The notes: generated from the sequence alone by a model not told the origin. Counted from the stretch's first letter, positions 15,753-29,301 are shown. The stretch is DNA of 42,621 bases from Alphaproteobacteria bacterium (GCA_024280475.1 JAJRQA010000183.1:1-42621); one strand, 5' to 3'. Numbers and translations: made by a program.

Positions 15753-16733
15753 ATGCTGGGTATGATCAAAAGTTTCGCGGTTTTTGGGTTTTCGCTATTA
15801 TTGATGATTTCATATCAATCCGGGCAGGCATCAGCTCAGTTTGACAATGATAGTTGGCTCAATAATGCTTTTGTCACGCCCTTGCCGAGCAAGATCAAAA
15901 ATGGCAAGTCGGTCACGCAAGGTAAAAGCGCGTCGATCAAGGCTTTGCAAAGCTTCATGGAGAGCGGCGCATTTTTGAGCCCCAGCGATGTCACAAACTT
16001 TTCCAAAAGCATAGAAAGCCTGGTGGGAAATTATTTCTATATCGATAAGAAAAGCGGCCAGTTACAACTGCTCGGTCCAACATTTGTTGAAGCCAATAAG
16101 ACGGTTGGTATCAAGGATGTCATCATATTCAGGGCGATTGTCGACCGTAAATTTGGCACGGGCGCCAAAGTACCCGCGTTTCTTGAATTGCATATGCAAA
16201 AAGATGATTTGACAGAGCTGACTATTCGCAGCATCGCCACCGTTATTGGTAATAGTGGATCGAATATGGTGGCTTGCAACGCCCCGTTTGGTGACTTTGG
16301 TGCCAATAGCGATCAACTCTTTTATATCACCGCGGCGAGTGTTTCCATGATCTATAAGAAAGCCTATCAGCTGCGTGAGCAAAGCGGCTCGGGGCTCATA
16401 TCCATGTTGAACCTCAAGGGCAAAAACTATTTCTCAAATAAACTGGAAACAAGAGTGCCGGTGATCTCGGTTTCTTCGATTCCGGTGCCCTCGATCCCGC
16501 AGGACAAATTTTATCTGTGCGCAAAATATAATGATGCCGTAAAGAGTATCGAGACGGCTTCTTTGACAAAGAAAACCAAGGTTCGTGCCGTGCGTGCGAT
16601 GCGTGCCATGGGGCCAAGCAGGCAGCAGCGCGTCTTGAATAGTCTGGATGCGCAACTGTCCAGTGTCGCGGTCAAGGGGGATGAGAAAGCCGTCATTAAA
16701 CTACGGGGCAAAGTGGTTGAAGTCAGGCAGTAA
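15753..16733 (+). CDS. hypothetical secreted protein
   Basis: The 326-aa protein has a signal peptide (MLGMIKSFAVFGFSLLLMISYQSGQASA-QF) and a GAGGGAG SD. I recognise no family. Confidence 0.55.
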   Translation: MLGMIKSFAVFGFSLLLMISYQSGQASAQFDNDSWLNNAFVTPLPSKIKNGKSVTQGKSASIKALQSFMESGAFLSPSDVTNFSKSIESLVGNYFYIDKKSGQLQLLGPTFVEANKTVGIKDVIIFRAIVDRKFGTGAKVPAFLELHMQKDDLTELTIRSIATVIGNSGSNMVACNAPFGDFGANSDQLFYITAASVSMIYKKAYQLREQSGSGLISMLNLKGKNYFSNKLETRVPVISVSSIPVPSIPQDKFYLCAKYNDAVKSIETASLTKKTKVRAVRAMRAMGPSRQQRVLNSLDAQLSSVAVKGDEKAVIKLRGKVVEVRQ

Positions 16734-16734
16734 T

Positions 16735-17088
16735 CTATCTCACGGCTATTCGCGCTATCGCGCGGCCTCCGATGGGGCGGGCAACGCCCGGCGCGTGGTC
16801 ACGCTTGCCTCCCGTTGGTCGGAATTCTTTTTCCCATGCCATGACTTTTCCATAATAATGAATAACCGATGTACTCATCGGCAAGGCCGACTGGCCGCCG
16901 CGCAATAGCGCGCCTATCGGAGGCCGTGCGTTAGCGCGAATAGCCGTGAGATATATTAAACTCCCCGATGTACTCATCTGCAAGCGTGACCACGCGCCGC
17001 GTTGTTGCGCGCCCTCAGCCCTCAAATAGCGAAGCGGTAGGGCAACGAAAATGCAGGCCGTGCGCAGCACGAATAGCCGTGAGATATA
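16735..17088. repeat. mosaic intergenic repeat element (nested inverted and direct repeats, MITE/RIME-like)
   Basis: A ~39-bp inverted repeat atctcacggctattcgcgctatcgcgcggcctccgatgg (16738-16776) faces cctatcggaggccgtgcgttagcgcgaatagccgtgagat (16913-16952). Direct repeats ccgatgtactcatc(g/t)gcaag lie at 16866 and 16966. The motif gccgtgcg...cgaatagccgtgagatata lies at 16918 and 17050. Confidence 0.7.
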
Positions 17089-20335: not shown

Positions 20336-20622
20336 GACTGCGTGAGATTTTCACCAATATCATTGATGAAAGCAAGAAACAGTTTTTTTGGTAGTCAATT
20401 GTTAATTAAACCTCACTAAGAACTATTTAAAGGCGAATGATGTTTTCTTCGTTCTGCAGGTGCGATTTGCAGTCGAATATTGATGCGTCAGAAAAAATAA
20501 TAATAAAAATTCGTATTGCGTTCCCAAAATACATGAACCAGATACACCATCACTGGATGGTATTTTTGTAGATGCTGTGCTGTGAAATAATCATGTGCGG
20601 CAACCGGACCCGGGGAAACGAC

Positions 20623-22596
20623 ATGCAAGAAAATCTCATCGAAAAATTTGATGCCTATCTGTTTGATAGCGGCAAAAACTTCCAACCGAACGAGAAATTA
20701 TGGAAAGTCTGTGAGCCAATTATCAAATCCTTGATGGATGATTTTTATCGCAATATTCTATCGGTAGATGAGCTGCGATCCATTATTGGTGGTGAATCGC
20801 GGTTTGACGGGCTGAAATCGGCACAGCTCAATCATTGGAAAATGATGCTTGCGGGAAGTCTTGATGAAAATTTCCAGGAAAATTCCGTGAAGATCGGCGA
20901 AATTCACGAGCGCATTGGTCTTGATCAAGGCTGGTATATGGCTTCATATGCTTGGATCTTGATGCGGTTGCTGCCGCAGGTTGCTGCGAAATATCGTTTC
21001 TCATCGTCGCGCATGAAGGCCTATATACAGCAGATCATCGCACGCATGACGATCGATATCATGATCTCCACATCAGCCTATGAAAAAAAGTCGATGATCA
21101 ATGCTATTGGCTTGCACGAGGGAGATGCTGACACAAAGAACCTGCGCTCGCTGGCAGAAACCGTCGTTAAAGTGAACGCTACATCGTTTCGTCTTGCAAG
21201 ACTTGTTGGTAATGCCAAGGAAGCCAAACTTGGGTCACAGACCATTTCATCGGCAGCTTCACAGCTTGTGGCCTCTGTCGAGCAGATTTCTGTAAGCAGC
21301 GAAAGCGCCGCGAACGAAGCCAATGAAAGCAATCAAACCGCTCAAGAGGGCCATACGGCGATCAATGAAGCGACAAAAGCTATTCAAAATATGCTGACCG
21401 CGGTTCACGAGACCCATGAAGGCATTGAAGTTTTAAGCGAAGCGTCGAGCGAAATCGGCCAGATTTTGACTGCTATTGAGGACATTGCTGACCAGACCAA
21501 CCTGTTGGCCCTGAACGCCACGATCGAAGCTGCGCGAGCGGGGGAAGCTGGCAAGGGGTTTGCTGTTGTCGCCTCTGAAGTAAAGAGCCTGGCCAGTCAG
21601 ACATCGAAATCAACCGAAGATATTGCCCGCAAGATTGCGGCGCTGAATTCTGGTATGGAGAAAATACGCTCTACCATGATTTCGTCCCAAAGCGCGGTAA
21701 GCGAAGGTGAAACGGCCGTCGCCAGCGCCCGCGAAACAATGGATCAGATTTCTGGTCAGGTGGGCGGCGTCTATGAAAAAATGCTCGATATCTCAAATAT
21801 TTTACAAGAGCAAAAAGGCGCAACAAACGAGATTGCGCAAAGCATTGTCAATGTCGCCAATCTGTCAGCCCAGAATGAAGAACTGATCGAAGAGATGGCG
21901 GACAGCTATCAAACCACCAATGACGAATTCATGTCATCGGCCCAAAACTGGTTCAATGAAGGGTCTGATCAAGCTCTTTGCGAGATGGCGAAAATCGATC
22001 ATGTTTTGTTTAAGAAACGTGTTCTGGATACGGTCATGGATCGCGGAGATTGGAAAAGCGACGAAGTCCCTGATCATCATTCCTGCCGCCTTGGCAAATG
22101 GTATGATGCCTTGACTAACAGCAAATTGGTCAATCACCCCAGTTATAAAGCATTGGTGGAACCACATATGATTGTCCATGCTGCCGGTAAACAGGCGCTG
22201 GTCAACCATGCTGCAAATGATTTTGACGCAACCATAGCCGAAGTAGACCGCATGAATGAGGCGAGCCTTGATGTCGTGCGTTTGCTGGGGGAGTTGTCTG
22301 AGTCCCTTGATGCGGAGCAAGAAGCTGAGAACCAACGCCAATTTGACCGGCTGACCACGAGGATGAGTGCCAAACTTGATAGTGGCACCGTGGCAGGTCA
22401 GGAAATCACCATAGAAGATATGTCTAAAGGCGGCGTTGGCATTCGGGGCGCAAGTTTGCAACCTGGCCAGGAGGTCAGTATTTCTGTCGGTAATGATGGG
22501 CCAAGAGATGGTGTCACGAGATGGGTCGCAGGCGATCGCGCCGGTATCCAGTTTGAAGACACCAATGCCGAACCGGCGCGAAAAAAAGCCGGTTGA
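20623..22596 (+). CDS. soluble globin-coupled chemoreceptor: HemAT-type globin sensor, MCP signalling domain, CZB zinc-binding domain and C-terminal PilZ domain
   Basis: N-term residues ~30-170 align by eye to the HemAT globin ([23 protein letters not shown] against HemAT IASIHLRIGLLPKWYMGAF, proximal His). The highly conserved MCP hairpin is [31 protein letters not shown]. The CZB motif is [10 protein letters not shown]...H. The C-terminus has PilZ motifs RLTTR (RxxxR) and DMSKGGVGI (DxSxGG). There is no TM helix. I chose the start at MQENL (20623, GGGGAA SD). Confidence 0.8.
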
Positions 22597-22949: not shown

Positions 22950-24512
22950 ATGAAACTTTTTAAATCCTTTGCAACAGTTGGCGGCTTTACGCTGGCCAGC
23001 CGTGTTCTTGGCTTCGTCCGTGATATCATGATCGCCATGGTGCTAGGCACCGGCCCTGTCGCTGAAGCCTTTGTGGTGGCCTTTCGTTTTCCCAACCTGT
23101 TTCGTCGCCTGTTCGCAGAAGGGGCATTCAACTCGGCCTTTATTCCGCTGTTTGCCAAGCGCCTGGAAGGGGAGGGCAAGGCCGAGGCGAAAAAATTTGC
23201 GCAAGAAGCCATGGCGGTACTTATTTTTGCATTGCTGGTGGTCACCGCGATTGCCGAAATATTCATGCCTTGGCTGATGTATGGATTGGCGGCGGGCTTT
23301 GCTGCCGATAAAGAAAAGTTCGATCTCGCCGTTTTGTTGACGCGCATAACCATGCCCTATTTGTTGTTCGTGTCTTTGCTGGCACTGTTTTCGGGCATAT
23401 TGAACGCTTTTCATAAATTTGCCGCCGCCGCCGCTGCGCCGGTTATTCTCAATGTGGTGTTCATCGCTGTGCTGGCGGGGATGTCGTATATGAGCCTTGG
23501 TAATACCCGCGAAGCCGGGGTGGTGCTGGCCTGGGCAGTATCGGTTGCGGGACTGTTGCAATTGCTGGCGGTCATGGTGGCCGCCAAGCGCATTGGCATG
23601 GCCTTGAAGCTGGCGATGCCACGCCTCACACCTGGTGTCAGGCGTTTGTTCAGGCTCGGTATTCCTGGGGTTATTTCTGGCGGTATCGTGCAGATTAATA
23701 TCGTCATTGGTACGCTGATTGCCTCCATGCAGGATCAGGCGGTGGCCTGGCTTTATTATGCCGACCGGCTCTATCAATTACCCCTTGGAGTAGTGGGGAT
23801 TGCCATTGGCGTGGTGCTGTTGCCCGATATTTCGCGCTTGTTGCGCGCAGGCAAGGAAAGCGAAGCGCATGATAGCCAGAATCGCTCGCTGGAATTCTCT
23901 TTATTGTTGACGCTGCCCGCTGCGATTGCTCTGGCGGTTGTGCCTTTGCCGCTTATTCAGGTTTTGTTCGAGCGCGGCCATTTTAGTGCCAATGATACAC
24001 AAATGGTTGGCATGGCGTTGATGGCTTTTGCCTTTGGACTGCCAGCTTTTGTGCTGACAAAAGTTTTTCAACCCGGTTTTTTCGCCCGAGAAGATACCAA
24101 AACACCGATGATTTATGCAGGTATTTCCATGCTTGTTAATGTTGTCGTGAGCTTTGCGCTGTTCGGGGCATTGGGCCATATTGGCATCGCTATAGCCACC
24201 ACAATTGCTGGATGGGTCAACGCCGTGCTGCTGTGGATGACCTTGAAAAAACGTGGTCATTATGCCCTTGATGCGCCAGCCAGACGGGCCATCCCACGTA
24301 TTCTTGTCGCCAGCTTGATCATGGGTGCGTCTCTTGTTTTGATGCTTCCCTTTCTGGCTCCCTATCTGGCGCGGAGCCAGCCCTTTTTGATACAAGCGGG
24401 TGCGCTGGCGGGCATGGTGTTTGCCGGCATGATCATCTATTTCACGACCGCAGCCCTGATCGGCGTCTTTAGCATTGGTGCCCTCAAGAGCAAGCTTTCG
24501 CGGCGTGGCTAA
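22950..24512 (+). CDS. murJ: lipid II flippase MurJ (MviN)
   Basis: The 520-aa protein has 14 TM helices, and the N-terminus LASRVLGFVRDIMIAMVLGTGPVAEAFVVAFRFPNLFRRLFAEGAFNSAFIPLF is highly characteristic of MurJ. Confidence 0.9.
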   Translation: MKLFKSFATVGGFTLASRVLGFVRDIMIAMVLGTGPVAEAFVVAFRFPNLFRRLFAEGAFNSAFIPLFAKRLEGEGKAEAKKFAQEAMAVLIFALLVVTAIAEIFMPWLMYGLAAGFAADKEKFDLAVLLTRITMPYLLFVSLLALFSGILNAFHKFAAAAAAPVILNVVFIAVLAGMSYMSLGNTREAGVVLAWAVSVAGLLQLLAVMVAAKRIGMALKLAMPRLTPGVRRLFRLGIPGVISGGIVQINIVIGTLIASMQDQAVAWLYYADRLYQLPLGVVGIAIGVVLLPDISRLLRAGKESEAHDSQNRSLEFSLLLTLPAAIALAVVPLPLIQVLFERGHFSANDTQMVGMALMAFAFGLPAFVLTKVFQPGFFAREDTKTPMIYAGISMLVNVVVSFALFGALGHIGIAIATTIAGWVNAVLLWMTLKKRGHYALDAPARRAIPRILVASLIMGASLVLMLPFLAPYLARSQPFLIQAGALAGMVFAGMIIYFTTAALIGVFSIGALKSKLSRRG

Positions 24513-24644
24513 TTCATTAATCCGTTTTTGGATAAATGGTATAATTTGAATAATCTTATTTCTCGATCACATTTATGTTATCTTGACCGGTACGCTGGCA
24601 TTGGTGTGCGAACATAAAGATACTAAAAAGAGAGGGAGAAACAA

Positions 24645-24950
24645 ATGCTTGAACAAATTATTGCAATGGCTGGTCCATTGCTCGCCGGAGGCGCCGGGGG
24701 GCTTTTGGGTGGTAATGTTACGGGAGCAATGTTCCGTAACGCCGGCATGGGGCGTGGGTCCAGTTCGATGGTTGGCATTATTGCCGGTGCCATCGCTTCT
24801 TATTTCCTTGGCCCAACCATGGGTCCGATTGTTGGTGGTCTCGTTGGTGGCGGCGGACTAGAAGCTATTATTGGCGGTGGCCTGGCTGGACTTGGCGGCG
24901 GTGCTGCTGGTGGTCTGCTGATGGGCATCTTGAAAAAGATGATGGGCTAA
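24645..24950 (+). CDS. glycine-rich small membrane protein (glycine-zipper-like)
   Basis: The 101-aa protein is ~40% Gly, with repeated GxxxG/GG motifs in hydrophobic stretches. It has a very strong SD (GAGGGAGA, 7 nt upstream) after an AT-rich promoter-like tract. Confidence 0.6.
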   Translation: MLEQIIAMAGPLLAGGAGGLLGGNVTGAMFRNAGMGRGSSSMVGIIAGAIASYFLGPTMGPIVGGLVGGGGLEAIIGGGLAGLGGGAAGGLLMGILKKMMG

Positions 24951-25010
24951 CTGGATTTACAAATCCTGATAGATTAAATAGTGCGGCTTGTGAAAAGCTG
25001 CGCTATTTTT

Positions 25011-26150
25011 TTATGCCTCGTCCTTTTTATCCAGCGTCAGCAGTCCACTCAACAGAGCATCAAAGCCCCCTTTGTCACCCGTATGCAGATCAATGCGGCC
25101 GACTTTTTCGGTGAGTTTTTCCAGCGATTCAATTTCCTTGAGGCGCAGGAGCAGGGGGTTGTTTTCCATCAGTTTGGCGGTGTTGAGCAAGGCACGTGTG
25201 GCAGCGGTTTCTTCGCGTCGTTTGATGAGATTGGCCTGAGCGGTTTTTTCAGCCTCTACAACCTTGTTGATGAGCTCGCGCATATCGCCGGGCAGGATAA
25301 TATCCTTGATCCCCAGTTCTGTGACCTTGACGCCGATATCTTCCATATGCTCGCTCACATATGTGCGAAGCTGACTATCGATGGTCTCGCGATTATTGAG
25401 TATTTCATCAAGGGTGCGATTGGCAATGGCCTCGCGCACTGCAAACTGAACCAGCCGGTAAATATAGGTGGTGAAATCTCCAGAAGACTGTTCCACCTTC
25501 AAAGGGTCAGTGACCTGCGCAAAGGCAGTGAGGGTGACGCGCAGGGAGACGCGGTCGCGTGTGAGGATTTCCTGAGCCGTGATCTCGATGGGTTGAGGGC
25601 GCAGGTCATAGCGGCGCACGTCAATCGTGCGGTGTACCTGCCAAAAGGCGTGGCGACCTGGCTTTAATACCTCAATAAACTTGCCATCGACAAACAGCAA
25701 GCCAGCGTCAAATGGGCCAACAAGAAACTCTCCCACCAGCTTGGTGTCATTGGGATCAATCGCGTTGAGATGTTTTTGGGTAACAGCATAAGTTTCTTTG
25801 GTTTCGATAAACTCGGTCGTAACCTCGTTCAATACCTTCCAGAAATAGCGGGTTTTCCAGGGGCCGATGAGATGAACCGGGCGGCCATCGAACGAGACTA
25901 TGGCGACCTCCCCTTCGCCGACACTGACAATCTCGAACAGGCGGGCGGCCAGTTCCGGGCGGTTTTTCTCGATGACCCTTGCCCAGTTGCTGGTTATCTC
26001 GGCGTCCTTGATCGAAAATTTTTCTACCTTCAGCCTGCCAAAATCGAGATTGATGAAGCGATGGCGGCCCGGCTCCAAAATGCGCTCGAACTTACCATCC
26101 TTGATGAGTAAACCACGCTCGTCCTCATTGATCGTTACAAACCGGATCAT
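25011..26150 (-). CDS. SPFH/Band-7 (slipin/stomatin-like) domain protein with duplicated N-terminal beta-domain
   Basis: The 379-aa protein has two N-terminal repeats, LLIKDGKFERILEPGRHRF and LLFVDGKFIEVLKPGRHAFW. An SPFH core follows (residues ~170-330, IDVRRYDLRPQ...RLVQFAVREAI). An AGGAGAG SD is present. Confidence 0.75.
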   Translation of the reverse strand: MIRFVTINEDERGLLIKDGKFERILEPGRHRFINLDFGRLKVEKFSIKDAEITSNWARVIEKNRPELAARLFEIVSVGEGEVAIVSFDGRPVHLIGPWKTRYFWKVLNEVTTEFIETKETYAVTQKHLNAIDPNDTKLVGEFLVGPFDAGLLFVDGKFIEVLKPGRHAFWQVHRTIDVRRYDLRPQPIEITAQEILTRDRVSLRVTLTAFAQVTDPLKVEQSSGDFTTYIYRLVQFAVREAIANRTLDEILNNRETIDSQLRTYVSEHMEDIGVKVTELGIKDIILPGDMRELINKVVEAEKTAQANLIKRREETAATRALLNTAKLMENNPLLLRLKEIESLEKLTEKVGRIDLHTGDKGGFDALLSGLLTLDKKDEA

Positions 26151-26518
26151 CTGCTCACTCTCCTAAAGCACTGTGGAACTAGCCTGTCTTTGTAGATAGA
26201 GGGAGTGGCGAAAAAAGGGAAGGGGAGAAGCCAAAGGTCGCTGGAGAAAAGTGCAACGCGAATGGTACGGACGCTGGTTTGAGGTGTTGGTTCTGATCCG
26301 TTATTGGAGCCGCATAGGTCCAGCCGTGGCTGGTATTTGCGAACTTCCGCTGCAAGATCTTCGCCAGAACCGGTATCCACCAGTGTACAAGGTGTCAAAC
26401 GGGCCTGCCCGTTCTTTACGCATCCAGCGCGAGCCTTTTGCATCAAGTCCGGGCGTGAACATTTCCTCCAGCTTCCCATAATTTAAATCGCTTTTAAACG
26501 ATTGGCTTAAAGGGCCAT

Positions 26519-26603
26519 TGGTTAGATAGAAGGAATCGAACCTTCAAGGTCTTGCGACCACACGATCATGGATCATGTTGCGTTACCATTTCGCCATATC
26601 CAA
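26519..26603 (-). tRNA. tRNA-like gene, type II (long variable arm), Leu-like D-arm, anticodon loop UCCAUGA (nominal anticodon CAU); identity unclear, possibly a pseudogene
   Basis: Hand-folding of the minus strand gives acceptor UUGGAUA/UAUCUAA (7 bp including G-U) and D-arm GCG-AAAUGGUAA-CGC. The anticodon stem is CAUGA/UCGUG with loop UCCAUGA. The variable stem is GGUC-GCAA-GACC, the T-arm is GAAGG-UUCGAUU-CCUUC, and the 3' end is ...C-CA. C33 and a CAU anticodon in a type II body are atypical. Confidence 0.4.
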
Positions 26604-26610
26604 AGTCTCG

Positions 26611-26662
26611 AGCTCTTCCACTGAGCTATATCTGTTGCCAGATAGCGGGGATCGAACCCGCG
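26611..26662 (-). other. tRNA half-fragments in permuted order: a 3' half (T-arm GCGGG-UUCGAUC-CCCGC plus acceptor UAUCUGG-C) directly followed by a 5' half (ACAGAUA-UA-GCUC-AGUGGAA-GAGC, Thr-like D-arm)
   Basis: The reverse complement of 26611-26670 reads CUCGUGGUCGCGGGUUCGAUCCCCGCUAUCUGGCAACAGAUAUAGCUCAGUGGAAGAGCU. The two halves would pair with each other (6/7 acceptor base pairs) but are arranged 3'-then-5'. Confidence 0.45.
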
Positions 26663-26793
26663 ACCACGAGATTGCTGGTTGCAATCAACATTGGCATACG
26701 TTGTCCGCAAAGCGGCACGCACCGGCCGGGTCTCATGAGCCCGCACCAAAATGTCAATTACGCCATAAGAATAGGGGAGAACAGGGCTGGTTG

Positions 26794-28128
26794 CTAGCCC
26801 TCTTTCTTGTCATCCCCACTGTCATCTCCATCGGTAGTTGCTCCGCCGATAAGAGCGGCCGCTTCTTTGGCGGCATCCATGGTGCTTTGTGTCAGGTTCC
26901 CTGCCGTCTCGGCGACACCGGTAACCGCGCTGCTCGCAGCATCTTTAGCCCCGCCAGCGACAACTCCGGCCGCGCCCGCCACAGCGGCTGCGGCAACTCC
27001 TGCCATATCAGTTGCTCCGCTCGCCACGTCTCCAGTAGTCTCTGCGGCGCTCGACGCAGCGCTTCCCGCCACATCAACCGCTTTTTCAGCCATGTCTCCG
27101 GCAACAGATGCGGTGGCTTTGGCGGCGTCCATTGCGCCCCCTGCCATATCACCAGCGGTATCGGCGGCACTTGACGCAGCGCTTCCCGCTACATCGACCG
27201 CTTTTCCGGCCACGTCTCCGGCAACAGATGCGGTGGCTTTGGCGGCGTCCATTGCGCCCCCTGCCATATCACCAGCGGTATCGGCGGCGCTTGATGCCGC
27301 GCTTCCCGCTACATCGACCGCTTTTCCGGCCACGTCTCCGGCAACAGATGCGGTGGCTTTTGCGGCGTCCATTGCGCCCCCTGCCATATCACCAGCGGTA
27401 TCGGCGGCGCTTGCCGCCGCGCTTCCCGCTACATCGACCGCTTTTTCAGCCATGTCTCCGGCAACGGATGCTGTGGCCTTTGCGGCATCCACCGCGCCTC
27501 CAGCAACATCTCCAGCGGCGCTGGCGACCGATGCGGCGCCTTTGGCTCCCGCAACGACAGCAGCACCGGTGAGAGCGGCTGCTCCCCCCGCGACCGTCGC
27601 GGCGGATTTAAGATTGGATATGAGACTTTTTTCCCGGCGGGTACTGATACCAACACTGATCAGCAGCACGATCATCACCAGGGCGAACAGATTGATGCCA
27701 AGGCTCATAACTGTGGGATCACCTCCCCCTATCATCAGATCAAATTGGCTTTCCGGCGCTCCTAGTGGCGCTCCGTTGGTTGGAAAGCCAAAACCGCCCG
27801 CCAGCATATCCATAGCAAAGGCCATGCTGCCAAAGGCGTAGACTTTATAAGTGAGAAAGGCGGTGACGATGGCCGGTAATTGTAGCAGCCAAAATATGAC
27901 ATTTGCTATAGTTGATCCGGCGCGCCGCTCCAGCAGCCAAAAACTGCACATGATGCCATACAGGAAGAACAATCCCCCAAGAAGGGTCAAAAACAGCTCG
28001 AAATAGCTACCTCCCCCAGCGTTCAAATTACCAAAATTAGTGGTGACCACTGATAGACCGTAGACTGATCCAACCATTGCCACGATTGCCAATATTCTGC
28101 GAAGCCAAGTCTGCATTGTGCTCTCCAT
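26794..28128 (-). CDS. membrane-anchored Ala/Gly/Asp-rich tandem-repeat protein (novel)
   Basis: The N-terminal ~170 aa carry 4 predicted TM helices. About 260 aa of near-identical 40-aa repeats follow (AGDMAGGAMDAAKATASVAGDVAGKAVDVAGSAASSAADT), built from a 20-aa half-repeat, with an acidic C-terminal tail (DGDDSGDDKKEG). The start at ATG 28128 or 28116 is ambiguous, and the frame reaches a TTG at 28137. Confidence 0.65.
   Translation of the reverse strand: MESTMQTWLRRILAIVAMVGSVYGLSVVTTNFGNLNAGGGSYFELFLTLLGGLFFLYGIMCSFWLLERRAGSTIANVIFWLLQLPAIVTAFLTYKVYAFGSMAFAMDMLAGGFGFPTNGAPLGAPESQFDLMIGGGDPTVMSLGINLFALVMIVLLISVGISTRREKSLISNLKSAATVAGGAAALTGAAVVAGAKGAASVASAAGDVAGGAVDAAKATASVAGDMAEKAVDVAGSAAASAADTAGDMAGGAMDAAKATASVAGDVAGKAVDVAGSAASSAADTAGDMAGGAMDAAKATASVAGDVAGKAVDVAGSAASSAADTAGDMAGGAMDAAKATASVAGDMAEKAVDVAGSAASSAAETTGDVASGATDMAGVAAAAVAGAAGVVAGGAKDAASSAVTGVAETAGNLTQSTMDAAKEAAALIGGATTDGDDSGDDKKEG
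27092..27480. repeat. tandem 120-bp DNA repeats (about 3.3 copies, ~97-99% identical) inside the repeat-protein CDS
   Basis: catgtctccggcaacagatgcggtggctttggcggcgtccattgcgccccctgccatatcaccagcggtatcggcggc... recurs at 27092, 27212 and 27332. Confidence 0.85.
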
Positions 28129-28266
28129 GTATCCCAATTATTTTTATGCTAAGCTAGTTTACTCATTTTTTTCCAGATCATCAAGCAGGGGTCCGGGTAT
28201 CACTTTATTGCAGGTCTTGCAACAAGTAGGCGAGCGCGCCATAACATTGCTCAAAGGAGCAGCTTT

Positions 28267-29301
28267 ATGAAACAGAATGAGCGGGTATTTTCCGGTGTGC
28301 AGCCAACTGGAAATCTGCATTTGGGCAATTATTTGGGGGCCATCAAGCGATTTGTTGCCTTGCAAGAAGAGCATGAATGTCTTTATTGCGTGGTCGATTT
28401 GCACGCCATAACCGTTTGGCAGGACCCTGAAAGCCTTGCTCATAATATCCGTGAAGTGGCCGCTGCTTTTATCGCCTCTGGGATTGATCCTGCAAAGCAG
28501 ATCATCTTCAATCAAAGTCAGGTCTCTGGTCATGCTGAACTGGCATGGATTTTCAATTGTGTTGCGCGCATGGGGTGGCTGAACCGCATGACCCAGTTCA
28601 AGGAAAAGGCTGGCAAGCACAAGGAAAACGCTTCGGTTGGATTGTTTTCCTATCCAAATCTTATGGCTGCCGATATTTTGCTATATCGCGCAACTCATGT
28701 GCCGGTGGGAGCAGATCAGAAACAGCATTTGGAACTGGCCCGTGATATAGCCCAAAAGTTCAATAATGATTTTGCTTCCAGCATTGAAAAATGCGGGCAT
28801 GAGGAGGGCTTTTTTCCCCTGCCCAAGCCGTTGATCGCGGGGCCGGCGACGAGGGTCATGTCGCTTCGCAATGGTGCGGAAAAGATGAGCAAATCTGCTC
28901 CTTCTGATATGACACGCATAAATCTGACCGATGATCGAGATCTGATCGCCAAAAAGATTAAAAAGGCCAAAACCGATCCAGAACCCTTGCCGTCGGAGGA
29001 AGCTGGACTTGCGGATCGTCCAGAGGCTGCCAACCTTGTTGGCATTTATGCAGCACTTGCCGAGATGCCCGTGAGTGATGTTTTGGCTCAGCACGGGGGA
29101 GCGGGGTTTGGGGCCTTTAAACCTGAGCTCATTGAACTGGCGGTGCAAAAGCTATCTCCCATTAGCGAAGAAATGCAAAAATTGATGGGAGAGGCTGGAG
29201 AAATTGACGCCATCTTGATCGATGGTGCTAACCGGGCTCGCGAAATTGCGGATCCCGTCATGGCCAGGGTCAAAGAAATCGTCGGTTTTATTGGCAAATA
29301 A
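28267..29301 (+). CDS. trpS: tryptophan--tRNA ligase
   Basis: It has the class I aaRS HIGH-like signature (GNLHLGNY...) and the KMSKS motif (KMSKS at ...[12 protein letters not shown]), in 344 aa. Confidence 0.9.

Follow-up and report, generated by a model that had tools for sequence, protein, structure and literature searches.

Organization of the murJ-trpS interval

This analysis concerns the ~3.6-kb block of genes that lies between murJ and trpS in a 42,621-nucleotide (nt) stretch of alphaproteobacterial DNA (the window, to whose full length all coordinates refer), and in particular an SPFH/Band_7 gene and the structured non-coding RNA encoded directly upstream of it. Labels of the form Lnnn denote comparison loci. 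An earlier sequence-only reading had proposed a four-part layout consisting of a Gly-rich peptide gene, an SPFH gene, tRNA-like sequence, and a repeat protein gene. This layout was borne out by open reading frame (ORF) analysis, Pfam, ARAGORN, Rfam, and a repeat scan. The features of the interval and its flanks are as follows.

22950-24512, plus strand: murJ (lipid II flippase), the left flank; Pfam PF03023, E=1e-118
24645-24950, plus strand: Gly-rich ORF of 101 amino acids (aa); no family match
24976-25008: terminator-like 14-bp hairpin with T-run, located where the Gly-rich and SPFH genes converge; consensus scan and sequence
25011-26150, minus strand: SPFH/Band_7 "slipin family" protein of 379 aa; PF01145, E=3e-34
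26151-26793: non-coding stretch of 643 nt with no credible ORF and with tRNA-like sequence inside
~26211-26761, minus strand: SPFH-associated structured non-coding RNA as a whole, ~550 nt; ends inferred
26794-28137, minus strand: repeat protein of 447 aa; four 120-bp tandem repeats at 27044-27518
28267-29301, plus strand: trpS, the right flank; PF00579, E=9e-72

An additional ORF of 110 aa at 26147-26479 was rejected as a gene because it is frameshifted in the closest relative, L002.

Parts and ends of the structured RNA

The non-coding stretch was resolved into a promoter-like site and a series of structural elements, given here in the direction of transcription.

26768-26796, minus strand: promoter-like site TAGCAA-17 nt-TATTCT; recognized by eye and missed by a strict consensus scan
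26689-26756, minus strand: 5' module, two hairpins ending in a conserved GUAUGCC/GUGUUCC stretch; model R1, 76.5 bits
26605-26671, minus strand: circularly permuted tRNA mimic of YrlA topology (T arm, closed "acceptor" hairpin, D arm) with the stem UCUCG/CGAGA
26520-26603, minus strand: cloverleaf tRNA-like element, 84 nt; ARAGORN ("tRNA-Met") and Rfam tRNA model, 40 bits
26486-26519, minus strand: two small conserved hairpins, GGCC...GGCC-type and AAUCG...CGAUU; five-sequence consensus fold
26235-26478, minus strand: 3' domain, ~245 nt, with the long-range closing helix GGGAAGCUGGAG / CUCCAGCGACCU; nhmmer E=1e-32

The -35 element of the promoter-like site and the repeat protein gene's stop codon overlap, and the position of the site is kept in L002 (TAGCAT-17-TATGCT) and in L026 and L028 (TAGACA-17-TATGCT). 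In the window, as in many members of the group, the closing helix is followed by a U-run. Because of the promoter-like site and this U-run, the RNA is probably a discrete unit of ~550 nt reaching from 26761 to ~26211.

In a permissive Rfam search, the permuted mimic (26605-26669, minus strand) matched positions 23-88 of the YrlA model RF02553 with 36.1 bits (E=2e-5), and YrlA scores of 36-40 bits were obtained for L002, L025, and L026. The cloverleaf element starts right after the permuted mimic and carries a CAU "anticodon," C33 in place of U33, and a long variable arm. Among its orthologues the anticodon is CAU, CAC, or UAU, the long arm is present or absent, and the stems covary. Because of C33, the variable anticodon, and the variable long arm, the cloverleaf is not considered a decoder. 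The AAUCGnnnnnCGAU hairpin was found in several further clades as well. No Rfam 15 family matched the 5' or the 3' domain of the RNA in the permissive search, and these flanking domains may be undescribed.

Three other assignments were tried and rejected. A two-piece (permuted) transfer-messenger RNA (tmRNA) was suggested by the order of the strands, in which the 5' acceptor strand comes after the T arm and the 3' acceptor strand; however, ARAGORN called no tmRNA, and the Rfam tmRNA model fitted only the 18-nt T arm with 14 bits. At E<=10, Rfam supported neither a cobalamin riboswitch, which the 3' domain (GGGAAGCCGG..GGAUACCG) resembles, nor RNase P RNA, which the 5' module (GUCCGGGCUC) resembles.

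Conservation and covariation of the RNA

Sequence identity between the window and L002 was determined for each part of the block. The tRNA-like core (26479-26688) is 94.8% identical, the 5' module (26689-26756) 92.6%, and the 3' domain (26235-26478) 85.4%, compared with 86-90% for the flanking coding sequences and 71-77% for true spacers. These identities point to purifying selection on the RNA.

Compensatory base-pair changes are present in all parts of the RNA. A consensus fold of five clade members recovered both tRNA-like modules with 13 compensatory pairs; for the permuted mimic, the same five sequences gave seven compensatory pairs, two of them in the closing stem and five in the acceptor-like hairpin, which has six pairs. 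In the 5' module, 96% of the cells of a model-fitted alignment are paired, compared with 32-57% when the partners are slid, and 13 of the 18 pairs are compensatory. For the 40 pairs of the 3' domain the corresponding values are 90.6% and 33-44%. The covariation score of this domain is 0.55 compared with ~0.12, 28 of its 40 pairs are changed on both sides, and none of 500 shuffles reached the observed values. A full-length consensus fold of 11 related RNAs contains 129 pairs, of which 58 are compensatory.

Linkage of the RNA to SPFH genes

Alignment of the regions upstream of SPFH homologues revealed a common element of 450-550 nt. Its parts follow a common order: first the 5' module, whose two hairpins end in GUGUUCC, then one tRNA mimic or two, next a small hairpin, and last the 3' domain of ~245 nt, which the long-range helix GGGAAGCCGGnn / nnCCGGCGACCU closes. 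The nhmmer profiles of the 5' and 3' modules were applied to 22 loci that have an SPFH identity of 51% or more and sufficiently long flanks; in 21 of them they matched upstream of the gene and on the same strand. With a covariance model of the 5' module, matches extended to loci at 39-47% SPFH identity; control loci lacking an SPFH gene yielded one weak partial match only (L005, E=0.024). ARAGORN called a tRNA-like element on the same strand 150-900 nt upstream of the gene in 31 of the 40 SPFH loci with enough flank, compared with no call in 328 kb of murJ-centred control loci. The calls upstream of SPFH genes often form a tandem pair with a spacer of 0-1 nt and aberrant "anticodons." The window itself has the tRNA (40 bits) and YrlA-like (36 bits) matches 370-520 nt upstream of the SPFH gene on the same strand.

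The genomic contexts of these pairs differ. The pair is located between murJ and trpS in the window, whereas in L024, a genome of 4.2 Mb, its neighbour is a DNA gyrase B-family gene (Pfam; possibly parE). RNA and SPFH gene form a conserved pair that moves as a unit between genomic contexts.

Individual loci showed further arrangements. L035 carries two complete tandem copies of the RNA (~520-1000 and ~1110-1590) before a single SPFH gene. In two soil-metagenome contigs, L050 (47-3739) and L053 (33-836), 20 and five ordinary-looking tRNA genes, respectively, lie directly upstream of the RNA-SPFH module; in L053, RtcB is encoded downstream. In other clades (L029-L043, L073, L024) the first tRNA mimic has normal topology with "anticodon" loops of 3-7 nt, a G3:U70 wobble in 9-10 of 13 cases, and an encoded NCCA tail in 12 of 13. 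The acceptor end of this first mimic is like that of tmRNA and tRNA-Ala, which makes alanylation a matter to consider. G3:U70 and NCCA were rejected as a universal feature. Because they are not conserved in the window clade, no aminoacylation is claimed for the window RNA.

The SPFH protein

The slipin family is very large, with >6900 homologues of the SPFH protein of the window. An AlphaFold2 model (predicted local distance difference test score, 81) consists of beta-rich N-terminal domains (~135 aa), the SPFH domain, and a long C-terminal helix. In a Foldseek search against the PDB, the best E-values were obtained for stomatin and HflK/C (1e-12 to 1e-10) over ~215-275 columns. The highest query TM-scores (0.41-0.49) belonged to the major vault protein (MVP), aligned over 400-450 columns at 13-15% identity. 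MVP was the only solved-structure class aligned over ~400-450 columns, a span that presumably covers the N-terminal beta domains. The combination of an SPFH domain with a long helix recalls stomatin, HflK/C, and MVP, all of which form cages. The likeness of the modelled SPFH protein to MVP is taken as structural resemblance only.

Inspection of the protein by eye, with no predictor, revealed no hydrophobic stretch of transmembrane length, which suggests that the protein is soluble. NCBIfam gave only sub-threshold matches to HflK/HflC (55 vs 159 bits). PADLOC returned no match for the three proteins of the block, and assignment to an anti-phage defence family was rejected.

Neighbourhoods related to RNA repair

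A gene for the RNA ligase RtcB adjoins the SPFH gene in seven more distant loci, and the four RtcB-type neighbours that were scanned with Pfam all matched PF01139 with E-values down to 7e-133. Citrobacter freundii has a slipin-nucleotidyltransferase operon with rtcR upstream of it in divergent orientation. In E. coli, a slipin-nucleotidyltransferase(-zeta-toxin-family) operon occupies the yjbD-lysC interval in 1631 of 5426 complete genomes (~30%). The upstream region of this operon was noted in the E. coli STEC309 chromosome (L091, 3918-4446), where it comprises ~530 unannotated nt, and in C. freundii (L090, 4553-5000). The E. coli region contains a sigma-54-like TGGCACGcttcTCGCA, a GGGCGUGUUCCGUC stretch resembling the 5' module, and a lone T-arm hairpin; ARAGORN and Rfam recognized no RNA in it.

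A pairing of this kind has been predicted before. In the passages of Wang et al. [quoted passage not shown] According to the same passages, YrlA is occasionally the RNA next to the Band-7 protein and then replaces b7a-tRNA, an RNA-ligase neighbourhood is frequent and not obligatory, and b7a-tRNA had no experimental validation as of 2018. In the searchable literature, no other paper mentioning b7a-tRNA was found, and nothing relevant joined SPFH, slipin, or stomatin proteins to a tRNA-like RNA or riboswitch.

Synteny and history of the block

A MurJ search of species-representative genomes yielded 23 loci. In 15 of these, which belong to other Hyphomicrobiales and Alphaproteobacteria, the MurJ match is followed at a distance of 64-236 nt by that of TrpS, so that adjacency of the two genes is the norm, as the sequence-only reading had assumed. 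The region is rearranged in L003. In two Parvibaculum loci (L010 and L011; 11644-13113) a catalase gene lies between murJ and trpS, so that accessory genes have entered this junction on more than one occasion.

The closest relative, L002 (MurJ 95% identical at the aa level, ~86% nt identity), has the same four-part block. L001 (MurJ 92%) has the repeat protein gene alone between murJ and trpS; the counterpart of window positions 24506-26845 is missing, and RNA, SPFH gene, and Gly-rich ORF are absent together. Two further loci, L025 and L026, were found via the SPFH protein. Their TrpS sequences are 81-82% identical to that of the window, compared with 94.5% for L001 and L002, which places them as outgroups. 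Both contain trpS, the repeat protein gene, the RNA region, and the SPFH gene; L025 also has the Gly-rich ORF, the position of which is out of reach in L026, where the contig ends ~290 nt past the SPFH gene. Because these outgroups carry the block, it is most parsimoniously ancestral to the clade, with a secondary deletion of RNA, SPFH gene, and Gly-rich ORF in L001.

The murJ end of L001 was compared with the window at the nucleotide level. A segment of ~20 nt resembling the RNA promoter region (L001 2690-2725, window 26766-26796) is fused to the 3' end of murJ. The junction sequence resembles the stretch just 3' of the repeat protein stop codon in the window (AAGAATnGGGG), and the remnant is read as a short C-terminal extension of MurJ. 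The junction is consistent with a deletion scar.

A repeat search found no att-type direct repeats flanking the block, and no integrase is encoded within it; a gene for a XerC/D-type recombinase lies 6.5 kb upstream, beside priA. The tetranucleotide composition of the Gly-SPFH-RNA part gave z values of -1.4 to -0.1 relative to the rest of the window, and the tandem repeats of the repeat protein gene are the sole deviation (z ~3.2). A phage origin was rejected, with only one viral contig encoding a relative. The block is an old, clade-specific gene cluster fixed between murJ and trpS.

Interpretation and alternatives

The core of the block is likely to be an SPFH protein with its cognate tRNA-mimicking RNA, a member of the Band-7 plus tRNA-like RNA (b7a-tRNA/YrlA) systems. 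This reading builds on what the sequences show, namely which genes are present, how the RNA is structured and conserved, how tightly it is linked to SPFH genes in differing contexts, and that the block is ancestral. A role in RNA repair is suggested by the neighbourhoods and by analogy. In the proposed mechanism, the ~550-nt RNA would be made from its own promoter-like site, and the SPFH protein, encoded just downstream on the same strand, would oligomerize into a ring or cage, as do, to our knowledge, all structurally studied SPFH proteins. The oligomer would bind the RNA. The tRNA-shaped domains might then present a tRNA-like surface to tRNA-handling enzymes (an RtcB ligase or nucleotidyltransferase encoded elsewhere) or, alternatively, act as competitors of genuine tRNAs for an anticodon nuclease. 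The system would be analogous to Ro60/Rsr with Y RNA.

Several points weigh against this reading. The linkage counts come from SPFH-centred sampling, which is blind to RNAs without an SPFH gene, and the sole exception among the 22 loci, L034 (55% SPFH identity), is an SPFH locus without the RNA. The YrlA match of the permuted mimic is partial and lies below the gathering score (36 vs 69 bits). Among the ORFs of at least 400 aa in the 42.6 kb scanned, no RtcB, Rsr/TROVE, or nucleotidyltransferase was found. Binding of the RNA by the protein is a step to which the linkage alone points, and the RNA could be processed from the SPFH mRNA, or act on it, instead of functioning in trans.

In a rival explanation, the RNA would belong to the SPFH mRNA as its cis-acting 5' leader, for example a tRNA-mimicking sensor or a processing or stability element, and would control expression of SPFH instead of being a separate partner of the protein. 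It would fit a leader that the RNA is always located upstream on the same strand and that a consensus scan of the window found no convincing separate SPFH promoter. The E. coli relative has the sigma-54-like promoter upstream of its RNA-like region and no obvious second promoter, and Salmonella YrlA is likewise derived from an operon transcript (PMC7790460). However, the distance between the 3' end of the RNA and the ATG varies from 41 to 376 nt, and the U-run follows the closing helix in many members; in L026, L028, and L025 a promoter-like site (TTGCCA/TTGCAC-17-TATATT/TATCCT) comes after this U-run. The two complete tandem copies of L035 are expected of a discrete unit, and ~500 nt of covarying structure far exceed the needs of known leaders. 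We therefore regard a leader as unlikely. Even less probable, to a degree that leaves it little weight, are functional decoding tRNAs, or spares against anticodon nucleases, that are co-transcribed with SPFH, the rest of the RNA being spacer. The elements are indeed scored as tRNAs by ARAGORN and by Rfam's tRNA model, the module of L050 and L053 comes after arrays of real tRNA genes, and most copies of the first tRNA-like element have an encoded NCCA. Against this, the first module of the window is circularly permuted with a closed acceptor end, the second has C33 (window and L002) and an anticodon that changes among orthologues, and other clades have "anticodon" loops of 3-7 nt and anticodons such as AGU, AUG, AAU, and AAG. 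The supposed spacers, moreover, are conserved and covary.

In a further explanation, which goes back to the sequence-only reading, the block would be a decayed integrative islet that entered at a tRNA-type attachment site, with the tRNA-like pieces as att leftovers and the genes as unrelated cargo. A normally adjacent gene pair is indeed interrupted, a close relative (L001) lacks part of the block, and catalase also entered the junction in Parvibaculum. The accessory interruption of ~3.6 kb is thus real, the absence of integrase and transposase genes from the block was confirmed, and the alternative of a lineage-specific module that the reading had allowed agrees with the data. The decayed mobile islet was not upheld. 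What had been described as tRNA fragments or debris of site-specific recombination are two complete, folded, covarying modules within a larger conserved RNA, better conserved than the coding genes; no direct repeats flank the block, and its composition is native. A k-mer comparison had been suggested as a check, and in the tetranucleotide counts only the tandem repeats stand out from the rest of the window, the Gly-SPFH-RNA part being typical of it. The claim that the block was inserted rather than ancestral largely fails, since L002, L025, and L026 have the same block in the same place, and the ~20 nt left at the L001 junction are consistent with deletion. Of the four supposedly unrelated elements, the SPFH gene and the RNA belong together, as SPFH genes in many unrelated contexts are accompanied by the same RNA. 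The decayed islet is effectively refuted and is the least credible of the explanations considered.

A more specific version of the reading as an SPFH protein with its cognate RNA may be put forward tentatively, with less than even confidence. The RNA partner of SPFH may be larger than a tRNA and constitute an undescribed class of large (450-550 nt) multi-domain RNAs, absent from Rfam 15, that forms with a vault-like SPFH oligomer a bacterial cage-type ribonucleoprotein surveying or sheltering tRNAs. If so, the permuted YrlA-type mimic of the window clade would show how tandem tRNA-like units give rise to Y-RNA-like mimics.

SPFH proteins are known for forming cages that scaffold membranes. A soluble SPFH branch tied to a tRNA-mimicking RNA would point to a different job, namely RNA damage control, and the pair echoes both the eukaryotic vault, with its SPFH-fold shell and small RNA, and the Ro60-Y RNA particle. 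A prediction of the pairing dates from 2016, as related in passages of a later preprint (bioRxiv 10.1101/312249), and no experimental test of it was found in the searchable literature. New here are the location of the tRNA mimics inside a much larger covarying RNA without an Rfam family, the travel of the module as a unit between genomic contexts, and the presence of relatives with an unannotated upstream region in ~30% of complete E. coli genomes. Through the E. coli relatives, the putative particle could be studied in a tractable organism.

Neighbouring genes and other observations in the window

The Gly-rich ORF is conserved at a length of 98-103 aa in L002 (94% aa identity), L028, L025, and L084 only. 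It is a real, lineage-specific gene, and its product is a predicted glycine-zipper membrane peptide. The repeat protein has an N-terminal multi-pass membrane region, 40-aa Ala/Gly/Asp-rich repeats, and an acidic tail. It is conserved only in the window clade, and in L001, L002, L025, and L026 its length ranges from 320 to 577 aa through the number of 40-aa (120-bp) repeats. Neither protein matched a Pfam (none meaningful at E<=10), NCBIfam, or PADLOC family. Because the repeat protein gene is kept in L001 without the RNA-SPFH pair, it is separable from that pair. Like the Gly-rich peptide, the repeat membrane protein is a neighbour of the RNA-SPFH core that is specific to the clade.

Two observations were made elsewhere in the window. 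A sequence of ~60-150 nt within 16731-17012, between two genes, matches several copies that lie at intervals of ~100 nt in the first part of L002 (1-346); it is a short repeat of tandem or dispersed type. The chemoreceptor gene upstream of murJ (20572-22596) encodes protoglobin, MCP signalling, CZB zinc-binding, and PilZ domains in 674 aa, an unusual architecture.

Comparison with known systems

The block shares with genomic islands targeted to tRNA genes the presence of accessory DNA beside tRNA-like sequence and the break in conserved synteny. In contrast to such islands, it has no integrase or att repeats, its composition is native, and it is ancestral in the clade; the tRNA-like sequence is part of the cargo and not of the target.

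With the membrane SPFH systems (HflK/C-FtsH, stomatin/QmcA-NfeD), the protein has in common the SPFH domain and coiled-coil helix, and these systems gave the best Foldseek E-values. It differs from them in having no evident stretch of transmembrane length, as judged by eye, and no NfeD partner, in its extra N-terminal beta domain, and in HflK/HflC scores far below the cut-off. The vault (MVP, vault RNA, TEP1) resembles the modelled protein in an alignment that presumably takes in beta-rich N-terminal domains, SPFH-like shoulder, and long helix, and in both cases a seemingly soluble SPFH-fold protein is linked to a small structured RNA. The protein of the window has 379 aa, whereas MVP has ~800-860 aa, the two share 13-15% identity, and a cage or RNA packaging of the vault kind would be hypothetical here.

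For the RNA, the closest parallel in topology is the Rsr (Ro60)-YrlA system (Chen et al. 2014, PMC4201824; RF02553). Both have a permuted tRNA-like domain closed by a stem and an RNA gene beside the gene of the presumed protein partner. YrlA is encoded within ~4 kb of an Rsr/TROVE gene and has a 5' GNCGAA(N)G Ro-binding motif (PMC4201824). In the window, by contrast, the partner is an SPFH protein, no TROVE/Rsr gene was found among the ORFs of at least 400 aa, and the RNA is ~5 times longer; the Ro-binding motif is not conserved in the aligned RNAs, where a single, unconserved GGCGAAG occurs in the 3' domain.

The Band-7 plus b7a-tRNA system resembles the pair in overall organization. The SPFH gene of the window is directly preceded by a tRNA-like non-coding RNA, and relatives of the pair adjoin RtcB, RtcR, or a nucleotidyltransferase. 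In three ways the window instance is a variant of this system: no ligase or nucleotidyltransferase was found near the pair among the ORFs of at least 400 aa; the tRNA mimics are embedded as two domains in an RNA of 450-550 nt that has large, covarying, Rfam-less 5' and 3' flanks; and, in the window clade, a permuted module of YrlA topology and a cloverleaf are combined in one RNA.

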